From positions 1 through 53,196 of the IMG/VR virus record IMGVR_UViG_3300020045_008062: DNA of 53,196 nt. The stretch is one strand, 5' to 3'. Within the stretch, counting starts at the first letter, position 1. Each line of letters starts with the position of its first letter. The DNA comes from a virus (Duplodnaviria; Caudoviricetes). Made by a program: the position numbers and the translations under genes. The notes beneath the pieces were generated by a model. The model saw only the letters and a list, made by a program, of their open reading frames with translations. It made no database searches and was not told the origin of the DNA. Below, piece by piece: positions 1-53,196 of this stretch.

Positions 1-17
1 CCGTTACCAGTAATATT
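1..17 (+). repeat. Partial attC-like site (R' end only; window starts here)
   Basis: CC-GTTACCAGTAATATT; reverse complement matches AATACTACTGGTAAC at 265-279 (14/15). Confidence 0.8.
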
Positions 18-249
18 ACACCTGACAATGTGCATATTTACCATCTTTTAAATTTGAACACATTGTTGAAGATAATTCCCAAATTCTTTCTAAAGCGTAA
101 AAGTCTTTGTGTGTAATCCCATTATTATTGTTGTACTCCATCATTTCGTAGTACTTTTTTTCAACTTCTTTTTGAAATTCAAATACTCTTTCATTTTTTG
201 TGCCTTCTAATTGGAAGAACTCTACTGCAATTTGTTTTAGTGTTGCCAT
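16..249 (-). CDS. Cassette 1 hypothetical protein (77 aa)
   Basis: ORF fills the space between GTTA (3) and TAAC (279). Confidence 0.75.
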   Translation of the reverse strand: MATLKQIAVEFFQLEGTKNERVFEFQKEVEKKYYEMMEYNNNNGITHKDFYALERIWELSSTMCSNLKDGKYAHCQV

Positions 250-272
250 TACGTTTTTGTTTAAAATACTAC

Positions 273-403
273 TGGTAACATATGCTACACAATAGCTGGG
301 TTAATTGTTTAATTTAAAGTCTGTTTTGCACTTGAATAATTTGTCTTAAATCGATGTATGGTTTTGTGCTTAACCAGCCATCGTGTAGCATCAGCCGTTA
401 GTA
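273..403 (+). repeat. attC-like site 1
   Basis: TGGTAAC...ATGCTACACAATAGCTGG / CCAGCCATCGTGTAGCAT...GTTAGTA. Confidence 0.85.
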
Positions 404-418
404 GCAAGACTACGTTTG

Positions 419-703
419 CTACTCAAAACTACTATTGTCCACACGTTTTGAAAGTCTATCTAACTTAAACGCTTTAGTTTCATCTACTCTTGATTGTACC
501 GATGGAAACATATATTTTATTTGTTCAATCATAATTTCAACATCTGCTATTTCTCCGCACATATCAACAAATCTTTCTTCTGTTGAGTTTCTTACGAATT
601 TTCTAACGGCTAATGCTAATTCCGTAGCTTCTTCTTGAGCCATTTCTAATTGAGCTGTTTGCCCCCATTTTTCAATTGTTTTTTTGTAAATTTCGTTTGA
701 CAT
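419..703 (-). CDS. Cassette 2 MazG-like nucleotide pyrophosphohydrolase
   Basis: QEEATEL...GEIADV acidic helical motifs of the MazG-like/all-alpha NTP-PPase superfamily. Confidence 0.75.
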   Translation of the reverse strand: MSNEIYKKTIEKWGQTAQLEMAQEEATELALAVRKFVRNSTEERFVDMCGEIADVEIMIEQIKYMFPSVQSRVDETKAFKLDRLSKRVDNSSFE

Positions 704-750
704 TTTATTTAGTTTTTATAATTAATATTCGTTTTAATGAGCCGTCCAGC

Positions 751-829
751 TACTAACACTCGCTACAAGCTAGTAGCCGAAAGTGTGTTGGCGCATAGGC
801 TACCATCTTGTAGCGAGATAACGTTATGT
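751..829 (+). repeat. attC-like site 2 (short type)
   Basis: TACTAAC-A-CTCGCTACAAG / CTTGTAGCGAG-ATAAC-GTTATGT, perfect 11-bp arm. Confidence 0.85.
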
Positions 830-847
830 GATATACTACTATTGTGG

Positions 848-1105
848 TTAAAATGGCAAACCATCGTCGATATATTTATTTTCACAACTATAAGGTATTT
901 TCATAATTAATGGCGGTTCTGGAGAAAATGAATTTGGTATATTAATTCCTTTTTGTTCCATTGTGTAAATCAAAATAGAAATATAATGATTCAATCCTCT
1001 ATCATCATAATCATCTTCGTATTGTTGTCTTGATATTTCTAAACATTCAGCTTCATTATAACAATCTCTTCCTAATACGCCTCCACAAGCTCTACAGTTT
1101 GCCAT
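848..1105 (-). CDS. Cassette 3 hypothetical protein, N-terminal Cys cluster
   Basis: CRAC...C...C; ORF fits cassette. Confidence 0.7.
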   Translation of the reverse strand: MANCRACGGVLGRDCYNEAECLEISRQQYEDDYDDRGLNHYISILIYTMEQKGINIPNSFSPEPPLIMKIPYSCENKYIDDGLPF

Positions 1106-1139
1106 TTCAATAATATTTAGTTGTTAATAATCGTACATC

Positions 1140-1274
1140 ACATAACACACGTTTGCAGTTATGGCTTATATCGTTTTTTCCTGCGGAAAAACCTCTGATA
1201 ATCTTAATTTGGGTTTGTGCTTGTTTATTTTAGTCCTGAATCCCGCCACATCTGCAAGCGTGGGAACGTTAGCA
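1140..1274 (+). repeat. attC-like site 3
   Basis: ACATAAC-A-CACGTTTGCAG / CTGCAAGCGTG-GGAAC-GTTAGCA. Confidence 0.85.
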
Positions 1275-1279
1275 AACAG

Positions 1280-1474
1280 CTACACAACATTGTCGTTAAG
1301 AAGCTTAATTGCTTTTTGAAGTTCAATTATTTCTAATTCAATATTTGCTAAATCATTTTGCAGAAATTCGTGGTCGCAAACCATTTCGCAGTTATCAAAA
1401 TCGGAATCTTTTTTATCCCATTCTTTACCTAATAATTCAATTCTTTTTTCAAGAACTTTAATTGCTTGTTTCAT
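1280..1474 (-). CDS. Cassette 4 small coiled-coil hypothetical protein
   Basis: 64-aa ORF fits cassette. Confidence 0.7.
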   Translation of the reverse strand: MKQAIKVLEKRIELLGKEWDKKDSDFDNCEMVCDHEFLQNDLANIELEIIELQKAIKLLNDNVV

Positions 1475-1498
1475 ATTTTATCTGAATAAAAGCCGATT

Positions 1499-1634
1499 TG
1501 CTAACAGTGGTTTTGCGAGATTTTCGGCACTTGGTTTAATTTAATTTTTAGTTTGTACTTGTTGTTTTTTTTGCTCAACTGAAAGATTACGCATCCTTAA
1601 CCGAAAATCCTCGCAAAGCCACGAACCGTTAGGG
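1499..1634 (+). repeat. attC-like site 4
   Basis: TGCTAAC-A-GTGGTTTTGCGAGATTTTCGG / CCGAAAATCCTCGCAAAGCCAC-GAACC-GTTAGGG. Confidence 0.85.
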
Positions 1635-1642
1635 ATAACCGC

Positions 1643-2044
1643 CTATTGGAGTCCAAAAACAGAATCTAAAAAGACAGTATCATTAGTGAATGAATCACAT
1701 TCTTTTGGCATTGGTTCTTGGTATTCAAAAGTTTCAGGATGTTTTTCTAAAGCACTTGATTTTTCAATTGAAAACGGATACATTATTTTATCAAATTTTG
1801 TGCATTTAAAAGCACTAACTTGTTTTGTTGAATATTGAGTTTCCCCATTTTCATAATCATAGCCAATTTCAAAATCAACATCAATATCTTCTCTTTCTAA
1901 AAACACACATCCATTAGTACACGCTCTGAAATTTAATGGATTGCAATTGCATTTTTCTTCGTGATTTGCCATTGCGTGTTTTCGCTTCAATTCCTTTTTA
2001 CAAAAATCACATTTGTAAATTGTAACATTTTCTATTGTTTTCAT
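1643..2044 (-). CDS. Cassette 5 Cys-rich, putative zinc-finger protein
   Basis: YKCDFCKK...HEEKC motif plus further Cys. Confidence 0.7.
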   Translation of the reverse strand: MKTIENVTIYKCDFCKKELKRKHAMANHEEKCNCNPLNFRACTNGCVFLEREDIDVDFEIGYDYENGETQYSTKQVSAFKCTKFDKIMYPFSIEKSSALEKHPETFEYQEPMPKECDSFTNDTVFLDSVFGLQ

Positions 2045-2073
2045 AAATTATAGATTAGTAATTCGTGGTATAT

Positions 2074-2207
2074 CCCTAACACGTGCTTGTATCAATGGCT
2101 TGCATCGTTTTTTCCTTCGGAAAAACCGCTGGCGGGATTAATCAGGATTTATCGGTTGTGCTTGGGTCTTGAATCTTAGCCACTGAGACAAGCACACAAC
2201 GTTATAA
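2074..2207 (+). repeat. attC-like site 5
   Basis: CCCTAAC-AC-GTGCTTGT / ACAAGCAC-ACAAC-GTTATAA. Confidence 0.85.
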
Positions 2208-2208
2208 C

Positions 2209-2415
2209 TCATTTTGCAGAACGTTTGCTAGTAACTAGTTCGGTTTTGTGAATTACTATATCTTCATTTTCAAAAGGAGTTTCAAAATTCCATCTATCGA
2301 GAGTAAATTTTGAAACTTTCAAAGTTTTTCCCCAAGTCGTGCAAAGTATTGTTAAATCCCCGTAATGAAAATGAAACCCACTTGCCTTAAATTCTAAATG
2401 ATATATCTTTCTCAT
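2209..2415 (-). CDS. Cassette 6 ORF3, hypothetical
   Basis: 68-aa ORF, stop 8 nt from GTTA. Confidence 0.7.
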   Translation of the reverse strand: MRKIYHLEFKASGFHFHYGDLTILCTTWGKTLKVSKFTLDRWNFETPFENEDIVIHKTELVTSKRSAK

Positions 2416-2573
2416 TACTTGTGATTTTTAATTAATTCAATTGCATTATTAATTTCTTTTAACTTTTGATTTCTTTGTGCAAAATCATCAGGATAATTTT
2501 CGGGTTTCCATCCTTTTAAACAATCTTCTAAAAGTTTCTTTTCTCTCTCAAGAATAAATATTGCTTCGTTCAT
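2415..2573 (-). CDS. Cassette 6 ORF2, hypothetical (52 aa, absent from ORF track)
   Basis: MNEAIFILEREKKLLEDCLKGWKPENYPDDFAQRNQKLKEINNAIELIKNHK; TAATG overlap with the next ORF. Confidence 0.65.
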   Translation of the reverse strand: MNEAIFILEREKKLLEDCLKGWKPENYPDDFAQRNQKLKEINNAIELIKNHK

Positions 2574-2579
2574 GGCTTA

Positions 2580-2792
2580 TTAAGTTAAGGCGATTATTTG
2601 ACCATTAATCCATTGGCTATAAGTTTTTGGGTTTCCAAATTTTTCTACATTATCCGAATTTCTTTTATGATATTCAGTATATCCTTTTTTTGAATCTTGT
2701 ATAAATTCCTCGAAAGATTTATAAGCATTTCTACAAGCTATAAATAGACATTTTAAATCATCTTGGTCGATAGTAAAATCAATATTTCCCAT
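2580..2792 (-). CDS. Cassette 6 ORF1, hypothetical
   Basis: 70-aa ORF downstream of an internal promoter. Confidence 0.7.
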   Translation of the reverse strand: MGNIDFTIDQDDLKCLFIACRNAYKSFEEFIQDSKKGYTEYHKRNSDNVEKFGNPKTYSQWINGQIIALT

Positions 2793-2841
2793 AATACAAA
2801 TTGTTTAGAAATTGCCGTGAATATCACTTCCTTATTTCTTT

Positions 2842-2891
2842 TACAAATATAGTAATTAATATTTGTATAAACCTAATTAAATTACAAATAT
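2842..2891 (-). promoter_or_regulatory. Cassette-internal Bacteroidota-type promoter with operator-like repeats
   Basis: TATATTTG on minus strand (2844-2851); TACAAATAT/ATATTTGTA/TACAAATAT at 2842, 2859, 2883. Confidence 0.6.
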
Positions 2892-2927
2892 TATTAATAA
2901 AAATTGTAAATAAATAAAAAAAACGAG

Positions 2928-3058
2928 TGATAACAACGGTTTGGAGCGATTGCAAGATTAGGATTTACTCGAATTATTAGAAAGAAAATTAAAAACTGTC
3001 TTGTACTTTTAAAAATAGTCTTGAATTTTTGCAACCGCACCAAGCCGATACGTTACCA
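2928..3058 (+). repeat. attC-like site 6
   Basis: TGATAAC-AA-CGGTTTGG / CCAAGCCG-ATAC-GTTACCA. Confidence 0.8.
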
Positions 3059-3064
3059 GTAATG

Positions 3065-3391
3065 CTACGAAACCTGCTCAACAACCTTTATTTTTTGTCT
3101 TTTTGTCTCCCAATCTCTCATTGCTATTATTTTAGCATCAAAATATACTCTCTGTTTATTATTACAGACCACATAAGCTATGTAATGTGTTTTTTCTGCG
3201 TAGTAATCTTTTAAAGCTATTACAGGAAAATCTTTTTCACTTCCTTCAGTGCCTTCCATCACAACTACGTGATACATATAATAATTTCTATTTCTTGACC
3301 TGAAATGAAATACTTTCAATAAATCTCCAACTAATATTTGTTTTCCAGATTGGTCAAAATATGTGTTGTTTTTTCTTTCTTCTAATGTCAT
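3065..3391 (-). CDS. Cassette 7 protein with YopX-like motif
   Basis: DQSGKQILVGDLL resembles the DxxGkeIyeGDil motif of phage YopX proteins. Confidence 0.55.
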   Translation of the reverse strand: MTLEERKNNTYFDQSGKQILVGDLLKVFHFRSRNRNYYMYHVVVMEGTEGSEKDFPVIALKDYYAEKTHYIAYVVCNNKQRVYFDAKIIAMRDWETKRQKIKVVEQVS

Positions 3392-3427
3392 TTTTTAAGT
3401 TTTAAATTTGTAAATAAAAAGCACTAC

Positions 3428-3504
3428 TGGTAACAATCACTATACTGCAGTTGCCGAATATACTAAACCGCATAGGCAACCGCAGTATAGTTTTAACGTT
3501 ATCA
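3428..3504 (+). repeat. attC-like site 7 (short type)
   Basis: TGGTAAC...ACTATACTGC / GCAGTATAGT...GTTATCA. Confidence 0.85.
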
Positions 3505-3510
3505 GGAATA

Positions 3511-3699
3511 CTACGATTTGTTTTCATAGATGATTTTTTCAATATCATTGGCGATTTTATCCATCATTTCAGATATTTTCAACTCATACCTTTGTTCCTC
3601 TTTATTTTCATTTATTGAACTCCAATCAAAATATTGATTTGCATATTCTTTTAATTTGTTTTTGTAATCTATTAGTTTTTGTTCTTGAATACTATTCAT
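3511..3699 (-). CDS. Cassette 8 hypothetical protein
   Basis: 62-aa ORF fits cassette. Confidence 0.7.
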   Translation of the reverse strand: MNSIQEQKLIDYKNKLKEYANQYFDWSSINENKEEQRYELKISEMMDKIANDIEKIIYENKS

Positions 3700-3729
3700 A
3701 ATATATTTAGTTTTAAATTGCCGTACTCC

Positions 3730-3865
3730 TGATAACAGTTGCTATAAGAGATTTTCGGCATAGTGATTAATCGTTTTAATTGTGTGTATTTGCGATGATT
3801 TGGCAAAGTGGAAAGATGGTTTTATACTCATCCGAAAATCCTCTTATAGCAACAATCCGTTATAG
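3730..3865 (+). repeat. attC-like site 8
   Basis: TGATAAC-A-GTTGCTATAAGAGATTTTCGG / CCGAAAATCCTCTTATAGCAAC-AATCC-GTTATAG; 21-bp arm with one extra C. Confidence 0.88.
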
Positions 3866-3894
3866 CTTATGGCTCGATTTCGGTTTTTAAGAAC

Positions 3895-4206
3895 TTAATC
3901 AAAAATATTAGCTACGTGACTTCTATATTCCTCTTCTTTAAAAATGAATAAATAAGTACTGTAAAATGGTAGCCAAATATGAAGTGTGCTTCCTGCTAAA
4001 TAGTTATAAATAGGATTTTTAAAATGGTCTATAGGGTAATCAAAATCATTTTCCCATTGCATAATTGAATAGAATATATGTTTAAATATTCCTAACAATC
4101 CAATCATTGCAATCATATAGGAAATTATATTTAACGGAAACCAAACCATTAAAGCTGTAAATAAGAAAATTATAGGGCTAACAATTATTTTAAATATTAT
4201 TTTCAT
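3895..4206 (-). CDS. Cassette 9 small membrane protein
   Basis: Long hydrophobic N-terminal segments. Confidence 0.7.
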   Translation of the reverse strand: MKIIFKIIVSPIIFLFTALMVWFPLNIISYMIAMIGLLGIFKHIFYSIMQWENDFDYPIDHFKNPIYNYLAGSTLHIWLPFYSTYLFIFKEEEYRSHVANIFD

Positions 4207-4238
4207 AACACGTTTAGTTTTTAAAAACCCACCACAAG

Positions 4239-4372
4239 CTATAACAGCAATTTGTGGTAATTCGGGTATTAGTTATTAATTTATTTTTGGTCTTGCATTT
4301 GTAAAATCTGTCTTGCATCGGTACTTTAGGATTTATTTACCCCAAACTACCACAAGTTGCAGGACGTTATCA
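4239..4372 (+). repeat. attC-like site 9
   Basis: CTATAAC-A-GCAATTTGTGGTA / TACCACAAGTTGC-AGGAC-GTTATCA. Confidence 0.85.
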
Positions 4373-4726
4373 GCAACCGCCCACAATCATCGTAAAGTGT
4401 TCACGACAAACATAAGCTGTTAAGTTATGGCGCATTCTATCGGGGTCGTCCGATGGAATTTCTTCTCCTAATTTATTGGTTGCATCTTTTCCGCAAACTG
4501 AACAAATCTCTCCTTCACAACTTCCAGAAATAAAATAAGGTGCAAATAATTCTAATGCTTTTGGTCTTTTGAAAGTATCAAATCCAATAGTTTTTGTTTG
4601 TGCATTTTGAGGAAAATAAGTATAATAATTTCTTTGAGGTATCCATCCATATTCGTCCATAAGTCCATTAGCTATGTCAAAATAATTTCCAAAAACCTCT
4701 TGTAATTTTTCTTTAGGTGGTAACAT
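4370..4726 (-). CDS. Cassette 10 protein with C-terminal CxxC...CxxH zinc-finger-like motif
   Basis: CSVC...CREH; stop codon lies inside the R' core. Confidence 0.7.
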   Translation of the reverse strand: MLPPKEKLQEVFGNYFDIANGLMDEYGWIPQRNYYTYFPQNAQTKTIGFDTFKRPKALELFAPYFISGSCEGEICSVCGKDATNKLGEEIPSDDPDRMRHNLTAYVCREHFTMIVGGC

Positions 4727-4761
4727 ATAAATAGTTTTAAAATTAGTATTAAGTGGTATGC

Positions 4762-4852
4762 TGATAACAAATGATAATGGCTATTTGCACAACCATTTTC
4801 CTCCGAAACAACTTCTGTAGTGGCAAACAGCCACTATCATCCACCGTTAGTG
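4762..4852 (+). repeat. attC-like site 10 (distal end of array)
   Basis: TGATAAC...TGATAATGGCT / AGCCACTATCA...GTTAGTG. Confidence 0.85.
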
Positions 4853-4855
4853 GCA

Positions 4856-4926
4856 ATATTCAAATGTACAAAACATACGTTTACAAATTACAAACAAAAG
4901 TAATTTATAGTAATTATAAATAGTGT
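4856..4926 (-). promoter_or_regulatory. Phage promoter pointing into the cassette array, with upstream palindromic box
   Basis: TACATTTG -7 element (4861-4868); 32 bp identical to 44205-44236; AATTTATAGTAATTATAAATA at 4902-4922. Confidence 0.7.
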
Positions 4927-5648
4927 TATTGAATATTTCCAAAATGACAAAATACATTTTCATAAATTCCTAATTCCTTGTTAATTGAATTACGCAAACG
5001 AATACGATCTTCTAAACTGTATTCGTTGTCAGATTTTTTTAATCTAATTGCGATTTTAGAAGCTAATTTATAAATCTGATGGTATTGTTCATTTGTGATG
5101 TGTAATTGCGGTGTTCGCCTCAAATCGGCTATAAAAGTCATATATTCCTGTCCATACTCTTTTACAATTCCTTCACGCAATAAACCATCATCATTTTGAA
5201 AGTGGTTTGATTGCGCGCTTTGTCTGTGGATGTTGTGTAAATTGAATCGGATTGTTTGATTGCCTCCACGCGCAAATACGTGACCTGCATCATACTTTTT
5301 TGCTGGATAATCACGAGCCAAACAATTCAAACCTTTATCAATTAATCTAACGATTAGATTTACTTTTACCTGAAGTTCTTTTGACCAATTTTTAGCAGCT
5401 TCTTTATCTTTTTTATGCTGAACTTTGTCAAATGGCTTAATTACTGGGCTTTCTTTTTCAACGGCTTTTTTTGTGATTCGCATTGCTTTATTCATATATA
5501 ATTGGCCTGCCTCGGTATCCATTAACCATTTTGGAAAACAACACATTTTCCCTAAACCAAACTTTCTGTTTTCTATTTTTACCATTTTGCCGCATCCTTC
5601 AAATCCGAATGCGGCATCTTGACCATTACATATTTTCTCTTTGATCAT
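4926..5648 (-). CDS. ninG: NinG/Rap-like recombination endonuclease
   Basis: VRLID...C...DAGH...IRFNLHNIHRQ...N motif of lambda NinG family. Confidence 0.75.
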   Translation of the reverse strand: MIKEKICNGQDAAFGFEGCGKMVKIENRKFGLGKMCCFPKWLMDTEAGQLYMNKAMRITKKAVEKESPVIKPFDKVQHKKDKEAAKNWSKELQVKVNLIVRLIDKGLNCLARDYPAKKYDAGHVFARGGNQTIRFNLHNIHRQSAQSNHFQNDDGLLREGIVKEYGQEYMTFIADLRRTPQLHITNEQYHQIYKLASKIAIRLKKSDNEYSLEDRIRLRNSINKELGIYENVFCHFGNIQ

Positions 5649-44204: not shown

Positions 44205-44286
44205 ATATTCAAATGTACAAAACATACGTTTACAAAAAACATTTATTTTTGTTTTAGGCTTAATTTATACAGATTATAAATAGTGT
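44205..44286 (-). promoter_or_regulatory. Phage promoter, duplicate of the array promoter
   Basis: 32 bp identical to 4856-4887; 44261-44286 matches 4901-4926 at 23/26. Confidence 0.7.
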
Positions 44287-52339: not shown

Positions 52340-53140
52340 TTATATTGCGAATTGTAAGGTTTGTAACTTTTTACTTGATGTATGGGTGTATATTTCGGTT
52401 GTTTTTCGGGAACTATGCCCTAATAAATCGCCTATCAATTTTAGATCAGTTCCTTTCTCGTATAATCCTGTTGCTGCACTATGTCGCAAAGTATGCATGT
52501 GATATTGCTTACCGAGATATTTTTTTACGATTTGGTTACAGCTTCCGGATGAATATTGAAATCCAAACTGGCCATTGAAAAGGTATTCTTTAGGCAAATA
52601 TTCGACATAATAGAGCCTGATTATTTCTCTTGTTGTTGGTGTAAGCGGTACTATTCTATCTTTTTTACCTTTGGCCGCACGAATATTTATCTGCATCATC
52701 GGGCTGTTTATATCTGACAATTTTAAATTTAAAACTTCTGAAACTCTCAATCCAACGGATGAAGTCAATGCAATTATTGCTTTGTGTTTTTTATTTTCGA
52801 TTTTATCTATCATCGAAACTAAATCAGTTACATCTATTACCAGCGGGATTTTCTTTTCTTTTTTGGCATACTGGATGTATTCAAATTTTCGGTTTTGCTT
52901 AATGGTTAATACATAAAATTTCTTTATTGCCGAATGCATTGCGTTTTGAGAATTTACTTCTTTGGCGTTTAGCAGATAGTTCTTGATTTCGTCAGCCGAT
53001 ATGTGTTTTGGGCTGTCTTTTTCTTTGAAGTAATTCAAGAATAGTTTTATTTGGCTACTATAGTTTTTTATTGTCTCTTTTGAGAAGTGAATGAAGTTCA
53101 AATCTCGCTCATAGTTTTGGATGTAGTTTGCGGAATTCAT
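52340..53140 (-). CDS. Tyrosine recombinase, integron-integrase-like
   Basis: SAM-like N-terminus (SKETIKNY); GLRVSE (R), KGKKDR (K), HTLRHS.AT (HxxR), LLGH, TTEIYTH (Y); no arm-binding domain. Confidence 0.92.
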   Translation of the reverse strand: MNSANYIQNYERDLNFIHFSKETIKNYSSQIKLFLNYFKEKDSPKHISADEIKNYLLNAKEVNSQNAMHSAIKKFYVLTIKQNRKFEYIQYAKKEKKIPLVIDVTDLVSMIDKIENKKHKAIIALTSSVGLRVSEVLNLKLSDINSPMMQINIRAAKGKKDRIVPLTPTTREIIRLYYVEYLPKEYLFNGQFGFQYSSGSCNQIVKKYLGKQYHMHTLRHSAATGLYEKGTDLKLIGDLLGHSSRKTTEIYTHTSSKKLQTLQFAI

Positions 53141-53196
53141 AGGCTTAGTTGTTGTGGTTGTTGGTTTTGTGGGTGGTTGAATAAATGTAGACGTTA
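53141..53196 (+). other. Candidate attI-like primary recombination site
   Basis: Directly upstream of the integrase start; ends AC-GTTA like the attC R' cores but has no hairpin; preceded by GGTTG-rich tract. Confidence 0.55.

Follow-up and report, generated by a model that had tools for sequence, protein, structure and literature searches.

A probable integron-like cassette array in a tailed phage, with genes antisense to their recombination sites and an Xer-like recombinase

The integron is viewed as a device of bacteria (and archaea) whose working relies on a specialised integrase. Hairpin recombination is also known from Xer enzymes, which recombine folded single-stranded phage DNA at dif in the CTX phage and other integrative mobile elements exploiting Xer (IMEX), whose whole genomes integrate at the chromosomal dif. 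IntegronFinder, as described in part of PMC4889954, defines a cluster of attC sites lacking an integron integrase (CALIN) as at least two attC sites with no integron integrase nearby. In the main-text parts of Qi et al. 2023 (PMC9892861), CALINs are reported in phages, including two predicted attC sites beside methyltransferase genes of Polaribacter phage P12002L; one of these sites recombined with attI1 under IntI1, and the two were reported with 'divergent directions'. Here, we analysed IMG/VR record IMGVR_UViG_3300020045_008062, a phage sequence of 53,196 bp that we call the window. Its positions 1-4887 are likely to be the cassette array of a phage-borne, integron-like gene-capture system.

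The array region (1-4887) contained ten complete hairpin elements of 71-130 nt and one that is cut at the record start (Table 1). On the + strand, all ten had the same layout: flank'-TAAC; an unpaired stretch of 0-4 nt with A in front; the two stem arms (~18-22 pairs) around a loop of 20-80 nt; a second unpaired stretch of 4-6 nt with C last; and GTTA-flank. Cores of the attC type (AAC...GTT) and hairpin folding were present in 10/10, with an unpaired geometry of 5 nt versus 1 nt; the canonical attC is described with a different one. We then assembled a set of 50 distinct elements, drawn from the window plus 11 further loci (12 sources). TAAC was followed by A in 49 of these and GTTA was preceded by C in 49, and the most frequent spacers between core and stem were 1 and 5 nt long. 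An element's own arms were 79% Watson-Crick over 18 positions, compared with 29% for shuffled partners (sd 1.7%, max 35%). Stem starts differed in 43 of the 50 elements, and the stems covaried. A scan of the hairpins against Rfam returned no meaningful family, its single match (E 0.44) lying far under the cut-off.

Twelve open reading frames (ORFs) of 52-133 aa lie between the hairpins. The original prediction, made from the letters alone, had placed all 12 cassette ORFs on the minus strand, co-directional with the phage genome, and this was borne out, although the cassettes number 10 and not 12: one of them (2205-2930) consists of three ORFs and an AT-rich stretch. The two ends of each cassette were complementary. 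The 10 nt after a GTTA matched the reverse complement of those before the next TAAC at 9, 8, 9, 6, 7, 8, 9, 9, 9 and 7 of 10 positions, compared with a mean of 3.0 for non-neighbours (max 7, n=100) and 1-6 for the two flanks of the same element, and the same complementarity was present in every array examined. For the orientation count given below, we used 36 distinct cassettes from the 12 sources; six loci duplicating the window or mumin records were excluded, as were modules with ends matching at <10/14 positions. Across 36 distinct cassettes, covariation extended over positions 1-6 and 8-10 of the end helix, and position 7 was A opposite C in 29 of the 36 (e.g., window 407 and 747), which is a mismatch when read on + and a G.T wobble when read on the coding strand. 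We read the complementary ends as the mark of a unit that was once circular and was opened at the core.

Complementary ends by themselves cannot tell whether the left or the right hairpin is a gene's partner; four other observations decide it. We compared cultured Muminvirus phages, which are 99.5-100% identical around their arrays; what sets them apart is whole units, in four events. In mumin6-1 there is a 506-nt unit, made up of gp008 and its right-hand hairpin, that mumin6-3 lacks, with AACGTTA on both sides; filifjonk9-1 carries an inserted 412-nt unit at the first position and, as a separate event, an inserted block of three cassettes; and tooticki6-1 has had its first cassette replaced. 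Viewed in + orientation, the left hairpin was kept in 4/4 events, the ORF and the right hairpin moved, and the joints lay at the 3' GTTA. The window also shares a cassette (4850->4374, hairpin E10 and the 118-aa ORF) with contig L023 (3877-4353) at 93% identity, with homology from TAAC and unrelated neighbours on both sides. Moreover, the arrays of the window and of the loci L010, L013 and L023 all have a hairpin as their far-end element.

The Muminvirus events, the shared L023 cassette, the hairpin-first far ends and the attI-like junction described below lead us to locate the crossover within the 3' GTTA of the + strand, as G|TTA, which corresponds to TAA|C in coding orientation. Under the integron convention, the strand on which a cassette ends in ...G|TT is the top strand; a crossover at this position makes + the top strand and the cassette genes antisense. 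The longest ORF was on the strand reading TAAC-5 nt...1 nt-GTTA in 36/36 cassettes. A second, opposed array in L013 was left out of this orientation count because its joint is an inverted duplication and a possible assembly chimera. At that joint (L013 7340-7720), the upstream gene's 3' end is duplicated in inverted form, with an array on either side, back to back, and 14/14 complementary ends; it is either a real inverted duplication at the core or a chimera of assembly.

Along the minus strand of the record, the recombinase gene (53140->52340) comes first, the structural and then the replication genes come next, and NinG (5648->4926) precedes the array (4887->1). The recombinase matched PF00589 (E 4e-30), PF13495 and PF02899, that is, a catalytic domain and an N-terminal SAM-like domain, and gave full-length matches to the XerA structures 4a8e and 5hxy. 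Both integron-integrase models were missed, TIGR02249 with 124.3 bits (cut-off 265) and NF011946 with 67.8 bits (cut-off 435). Models of XerA, XerC and XerD matched best, headed by the XerA-type NF040815 with 164.5 bits, under its cut-off of 220, and the XerA, XerC and XerD equivalog cut-offs were all missed. Against IntI4 (2a3v), the match split into query 15-168 and 211-255 versus chain 14-171 and 262-306. Where IntI4 carries its insertion, the phage enzyme has 43 residues versus 91, ~48 aa fewer, and lacks the IntI-specific insertion. By these comparisons, the enzyme classes as Xer-like, neither IntI nor a named Xer. The names attC and integron integrase are not justified, with an enzyme under the IntI cut-offs and without the IntI insertion.

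We next aligned ten recombinase loci, nine from IMG/VR and one from a Bacteroidota metagenome-assembled genome (MAG), in which the recombinase is 85-94% identical. Past the variable cassette end, a conserved and gap-free stretch of 59 nt (ATG included) led from TAAC to the recombinase ATG in 10/10. In all ten, the array runs into the recombinase gene on the same strand, and the last unit before TAAC|G is an ORF, never a hairpin. After the core, these attI-like sites read TAAC-GT or TAAC-GC, versus TAAC-GG in hairpin spacers. On account of this tight linkage, the adjacent gene is the obvious candidate for the enzyme, which might nevertheless act in trans or be replaced by a host Xer. Together with the joints and the 36/36 cassettes, the attI-like junction bears out the claim that the cassette genes are antisense to the site polarity and co-directional with the recombinase gene. 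The latter gene lies opposite to the top strand as in a classical integron, with only the cassette genes flipped. Gain and replacement at the first position were observed in Muminvirus, whose attI-like sequence differs and which has no recombinase. The Muminvirus arrays (L016-L018, 1640-1655) end at a conserved entry site of their own (...ATATTGTAG|TTA) beside a 65-aa gene. When Genome_contigs was scanned with the recombinase, one close locus was found, the Bacteroidota MAG contig, which is probably the phage itself, and one distant Flavobacterium match without hairpins.

The original prediction had also proposed a distal promoter abutting the last site. The motif is there: TACATTTG occurs at 4861-4868 on the minus strand, 12 nt from hairpin E10, in a TTTG/TACATTTG arrangement of the Bacteroidota -33/-7 pattern. 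Positions 4856-4887 are repeated exactly at 44205-44236, a 32-nt repeat of a kind not expected by chance, and the sequence is probably a repeated phage promoter. It is kept after NinG in the closest relative, L047 (NinG 88% identical). In L047 (7780-7870), the promoter is fused to the middle of an E8-like hairpin whose 5' arm and TAAC are missing, leaving a truncated site at the array head. No terminator-like (T-run) sites were found on the minus strand in 1-5300, and a sigma-70 promoter scan is uninformative for a Bacteroidota host. Inspection by eye of the ten sequences between the attI-like TAAC and the recombinase ATG revealed no TAnnTTTG, and the promoter would sit ~70 nt from this ATG if the window's array were removed. 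Because of these two observations, we propose that the distal promoter may be the former own promoter of the recombinase gene. A distal promoter is plausible for this phage lineage, and a reversed expression gradient and read-through into the recombinase gene would follow from the layout.

In the mechanism we propose, a cassette would be a circle-derived unit reading, on the + strand, TTA-flank-ORF (reverse complement)-flank'-TAAC-hairpin-G, with the hairpin site upstream of its gene on the coding (minus) strand. As the phage comparisons show, units come and go at the G|TTA core, which is TAA|C in coding orientation, and new ones enter at the attI-like site, 59 nt ahead of the start codon of the Xer-like recombinase gene. 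The attI and the site geometry relative to the recombinase would be classical, and the cassette genes would be flipped, running with the recombinase gene and the phage genome. The array would be transcribed from upstream, in this phage from the promoter abutting the farthest hairpin. Cassettes would have been inserted between the recombinase gene and its former own promoter, the older ones lying nearest the promoter and the newest beside the recombinase gene, so that any transcript reaching that gene would first have to traverse the array. The adjacent recombinase would be the enzyme and a folded single strand its substrate.

Another account is that the orientation is canonical, with the crossover at the + strand TAA|C, each gene followed by its own site, and minus as the top strand. 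In the canonical attC, it is the bottom strand that recombines, and its 3' arm carries the extrahelical bases; here the longer unpaired stretch is on the 3' arm of the + strand, and by this resemblance, + would be the bottom strand. Hairpin bodies also turn up again between other flanks on both sides. Read on minus, the cut TAA|C is separated from the stem by C plus ~5 nt, a spacing that would fit the arm-to-cleavage need of a tyrosine recombinase and that resembles the 5' half of the canonical bottom strand. Hairpin asymmetry alone is arguable both ways and leaves top versus bottom undecided, so the original prediction, which took the asymmetry to mark + as the top strand, arrived at a conclusion that holds by an argument that is not decisive. 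Canonical orientation is contradicted by all four Muminvirus events, in which the left hairpin stays and the ORF moves with the right one, by the window/L023 cassette, which carries the hairpin upstream on the coding strand and not the downstream one, and by the array ends, where the last ORF abuts the attI-like site without a hairpin (10 loci) and a hairpin comes first at the far end (window, L010, L013, L023). We regard it as very improbable. Slightly less probable still is that the hairpins are RNA-level or structural elements, such as terminators, processing sites, repetitive extragenic palindromic (REP)-like or miniature inverted-repeat transposable element (MITE)-like repeats, and that the cassette look is incidental. 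The hairpins would be co-transcribed with the genes if the array is one operon, and mobile promoter/stem-loop modules flank small genes in T4-type phages. However, the minus strand has no T-run terminators, the hairpins matched no Rfam family, and the complementarity from a cassette end to the next hairpin and the exact gain or loss of whole units at GTTA would be left unexplained.

The alternative to which we give most weight, unlikely though it is, concerns the enzyme: a host Xer-type recombinase or that of a co-infecting element would exchange the cassettes, the adjacent gene being a lysogeny integrase and the attI-like site its attP. Arrays vary among near-identical phages that have no tyrosine recombinase, the best matches of the recombinase are Xer families, it is the sole integrase in the record and may also serve lysogeny, and Xer enzymes act on folded single-stranded DNA of the CTX phage. 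On the other hand, 10/10 recombinase loci have an array terminating in a conserved site whose distance from the ATG is fixed at 59 nt, which is the linkage expected of an enzyme and its own site, and roles in capture and in lysogeny are compatible.

Several observations weigh against the reading of the locus as a gene-capture system run by its adjacent recombinase. The right end of the record is the final base of the attI-like core, and the left end lies 2 bases ahead of a GTTA, its minus-strand continuation TAAC-GG being of the hairpin type and not attI-like. The joint between array and recombinase gene is split between the record ends and absent from the window, and since the left end reads TAAC-GG, the hairpin spacer, at least one cassette is missing there. 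None of the wastewater contigs from four DNA runs spans the array or bridges the two ends. Seven of the ten related IMG/VR contigs likewise break <=2.4 kb upstream of the recombinase gene; population variation at the joints would explain both such breaks and record ends that fall on site cores, and these record ends count in favour of the capture system. The claim that the cassette ORFs point toward the integrase follows from the ten related loci and from the record ends, but with the recombinase gene at the other record end, it cannot be seen in the window. Moreover, there is no tyrosine recombinase in four complete phage records with arrays (mumin6-1, filifjonk9-1, Polaribacter phage P12002L and the L023 contig), so an adjacent enzyme is not needed for an array to persist or vary; in Flavobacterium phage FPSV-D35, the tyrosine recombinase lies ~8 kb beyond the array end. 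The L023 copy of the shared cassette has ends that are not complementary, and its homology stops 4 nt before TAAC. The far-end boundary sequence of L023 (GCGGTTGTCACTAAC) recurs after its 118-aa cassette (3157-3170 and 4347-4360), and this is why the two ends of that cassette are not complementary. Identical hairpin families also occur beside unrelated ORFs with unrelated flanks, and exchange at the other hairpin end may take place over longer times.

Two further points of the same kind concern the folded strand and the promoter. Folding energy was lower on + in 6 and on minus in 4 of the 10 elements, and G.T-compatible non-Watson-Crick positions were position-specific, 80 on minus versus 52 on +. 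Stem position 13 had an A/C bias in 28/50 elements (the same as end-helix position 7), and stem positions 4-6 had the reverse bias, so strand-biased positions point both ways. Energies and wobble-compatible mismatches are split between the strands. No promoter like that of the window was found at the array heads of L010, L013 and L023. The arrays of L010 and L013 begin on the stop codon of an upstream gene, with one TAA shared by that codon and by TAAC, and in L023 an upstream gene without the motif precedes it. The proposed distal promoter is supported in the window, by the exact copy at 44205-44236 and by L047, but not at these three heads; transcription from upstream would be the general feature, and a dedicated promoter would not.

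Table 1. Coordinates of the hairpin sites, cassette ORFs, recombinase locus and promoter sequences in the window
Feature	Position	Strand	Remark
Cut hairpin site, 3' end (ccGTTA, GTTA at 3-6)	1..6	+	Following 10 nt pair 9/10 with the 10 nt before the next TAAC; minus reading TAAC-GG
Cassette ORF, 77 aa	16..249	-	No family match
Hairpin E1, 125 nt	276..400	+	~85% identical copies in Flavobacterium phage FPSV-D35 and L013, beside unrelated ORFs
Cassette ORF, 94 aa, MazG-like nucleoside triphosphate pyrophosphohydrolase	419..703	-	phrog_2245, E 7e-26
Hairpin E2, 73 nt	754..826	+	
Cassette ORF, 85 aa	848..1105	-	
Hairpin E3, 129 nt	1143..1271	+	
Cassette ORF, 64 aa	1280..1474	-	
Hairpin E4, 130 nt	1502..1631	+	A wastewater contig matches exactly 1502-1631, both flanks different
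Cassette ORF, 133 aa, Cys-rich	1643..2044	-	Ordinary gene outside arrays in relatives
Hairpin E5, 128 nt	2077..2204	+	
Three-ORF cassette	2209..2792	-	2209-2415, 68 aa; 2415-2573, 52 aa; 2580-2792, 70 aa (phrog_20997)
AT-rich non-coding head of three-ORF cassette	2796..2930	-	23-28-nt palindromes; TATATTTG (-7-like) motif at 2844-2851
Hairpin E6, 125 nt	2931..3055	+	
Cassette ORF, 108 aa	3065..3391	-	
Hairpin E7, 71 nt	3431..3501	+	
Cassette ORF, 62 aa	3511..3699	-	
Hairpin E8, 130 nt	3733..3862	+	
Cassette ORF, 103 aa, hydrophobic	3895..4206	-	
Hairpin E9, 128 nt	4242..4369	+	
Cassette ORF, 118 aa	4370..4726	-	With hairpin E10, 93% nt identity to contig L023, both neighbours different
Hairpin E10, 85 nt	4765..4849	+	Farthest element from the recombinase
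Bacteroidota-type promoter motif directed into the array (TTTG, 15 or 22 nt, TACATTTG)	4861..4894	-	Motif scan
Second exact copy of the promoter sequence	44205..44236	-	Intergenic, flanked by the portal gene and a series of small ORFs
Xer-like tyrosine recombinase, 266 aa	52340..53140	-	Sole PF00589 gene in the record
attI-like site	53138..53196	-	TAAC at record end, 52 nt, then recombinase ATG; conserved, spacing fixed in 10/10 loci

The record is of the linear class, with a completeness estimate of 100% and a G+C content of ~30%, and the minus strand carries nearly all of its ORFs of >=90 aa. It has the gene set of a tailed phage (large terminase, portal, major head, tape-measure and helicase), together with a SNF2-type helicase, an N6/N4 methylase and NinG. 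Its closest DNA relatives in the phage collection were Flavobacterium and Cellulophaga phages.

Family matches were found for only two cassette ORFs, the MazG-like pyrophosphohydrolase and one belonging to a PHROG of unknown function, and the AT-rich head of the three-ORF cassette may hold its own promoter or operator. The 133-aa ORF has a 92% nt-identical copy at L026 4000-4367, an ordinary gene without hairpins. The copy is flanked by genes syntenic with window 15.4-16.7 kb, where the matching core slot holds another gene, and its homology covers the ORF body only (window 2045->1675), the last 11 codons and both flanks being different. The pair looks like the trace of a gene becoming, or leaving, a cassette. 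Homologues of this ORF were found at 22 loci; in the 13 that were compared, homology covered the ORF body in 13/13, and a hairpin stood beside the ORF in 0/13, with one doubtful match 2.4 kb off.

In three phages (window 276-400, L003 6009-6134 and L013 8115-8240), the E1-type hairpin and its shared paired ends (GTTACCAGT...ACTGGTAAC) enclose ORFs of 77, 91 and 62 aa that are unrelated to one another, and FPSV-D35 has two hairpins that are 94% identical with different flanks on both sides. Eight related pairs of homologous hairpins gave no link between hairpin and ORF, as the genes were unrelated on both sides. Hairpin 'frames' and gene bodies seem to evolve apart. When four wastewater runs were compared with window 1-5200, the summed contig depth was hundreds to ~1,100 at hairpins and flanks and often 0-10 in ORF bodies. 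Many of these contigs join both flanks of a cassette across a different middle, and some match the hairpin only, between different flanks on both sides, which suggests a large environmental cassette pool sharing these sites.

If the array is the integron-like capture system we take it to be, this phage does integron-like DNA bookkeeping with a plain Xer-like enzyme, which bears on the origin of single-strand hairpin recombination. According to part of PMC8946536, attC strand choice exists so that genes face the promoter Pc. The opposite orientation is fixed in 36/36 cassettes here, and we therefore suggest that the coupling of site polarity to gene direction is under selection and can be set either way by the source of transcription. 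Methyltransferase cargo is also found in Muminvirus arrays, and parts of Nilsson et al. 2020 (PMC7077304) link the presence or absence of Muminvirus methyltransferases to plating efficiency on different hosts; a word search of its main text found neither 'hairpin' nor 'cassette'. Because cargo of this kind in relatives is linked to plating efficiency, cassette exchange may be a direct route to a change of phage host range. We tentatively extend this to a broader proposal, to which we give somewhat less than even weight: that phages of Flavobacteriia own a counterpart of the integron, in which a short Xer-like recombinase acts on folded hairpins without the insertion considered necessary in integron integrases; that expression is reversed, with the array as leader of the recombinase transcript and new cassettes promoter-distal; and that the array stocks anti-restriction methyltransferases and accessory genes, exchanged by lytic and temperate phages and setting host range. 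The cultured Muminvirus and FPSV phages make these ideas testable.

Comparison with the known systems places the array beside the integron. CTX and IMEX elements likewise combine an Xer-type enzyme with a hairpin mimicking a two-arm core site with an unpaired centre, but they have no gene-cassette arrays and no dedicated attI-like site beside the enzyme gene. In inverted-integrase integrons of the Treponema type, as described in parts of PMC3607928 and PMC4889954, recombinase and cassette genes also point the same way; there, however, the integrase is flipped, whereas here the cassette genes are flipped and the recombinase is canonical relative to the sites and downstream of the array. The phage recombinase is opposite to the site top strand, and only the cassette ORFs share its direction.

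For phage CALINs, the main-text parts of PMC9892861 mention no cognate recombinase, attI-like site or reversed gene polarity (supplements were outside the comparison). The P12002L hairpins proved to be short members of the window's hairpin family, 49-58 nt long with spacers of 1-2 and 4-5 nt, beside minus-strand methyltransferase genes, and had the same coupling to gene direction as the arrays of the window. In the literature, with supplements and subscription journals outside the scope, we found no phage array with an Xer-like recombinase or reversed gene polarity. Within this scope, CALINs without an integrase were the only such systems of phages found in print. With an enzyme that fails the IntI tests, the present array is likely to count as a CALIN, provided that the attC model accepts its sites.

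The likeness to classical integrons, as described in parts of PMC8946536 and PMC4889954, extends to imperfect hairpin sites (71-130 nt here), AAC...GTT cores, circle-type ends and the G|TT crossover, and to an entry site that adjoins the 5' end of a tyrosine recombinase gene with the same site polarity relative to that gene. Unlike in classical integrons, the phage enzyme is an Xer-like protein of 266 aa without the IntI insertion, the two arms have core-stem spacers of 5 nt and 1 nt, pairing of the cassette ends continues to ~10 nt past the core, position 7 being a conserved A/C, the genes are on the opposite strand (36/36), and the promoter motif is at the far end and not at the platform. 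The array functions like an integron and falls outside the tests by which integrons are recognised; it is best classed as a variant of the integron kind.

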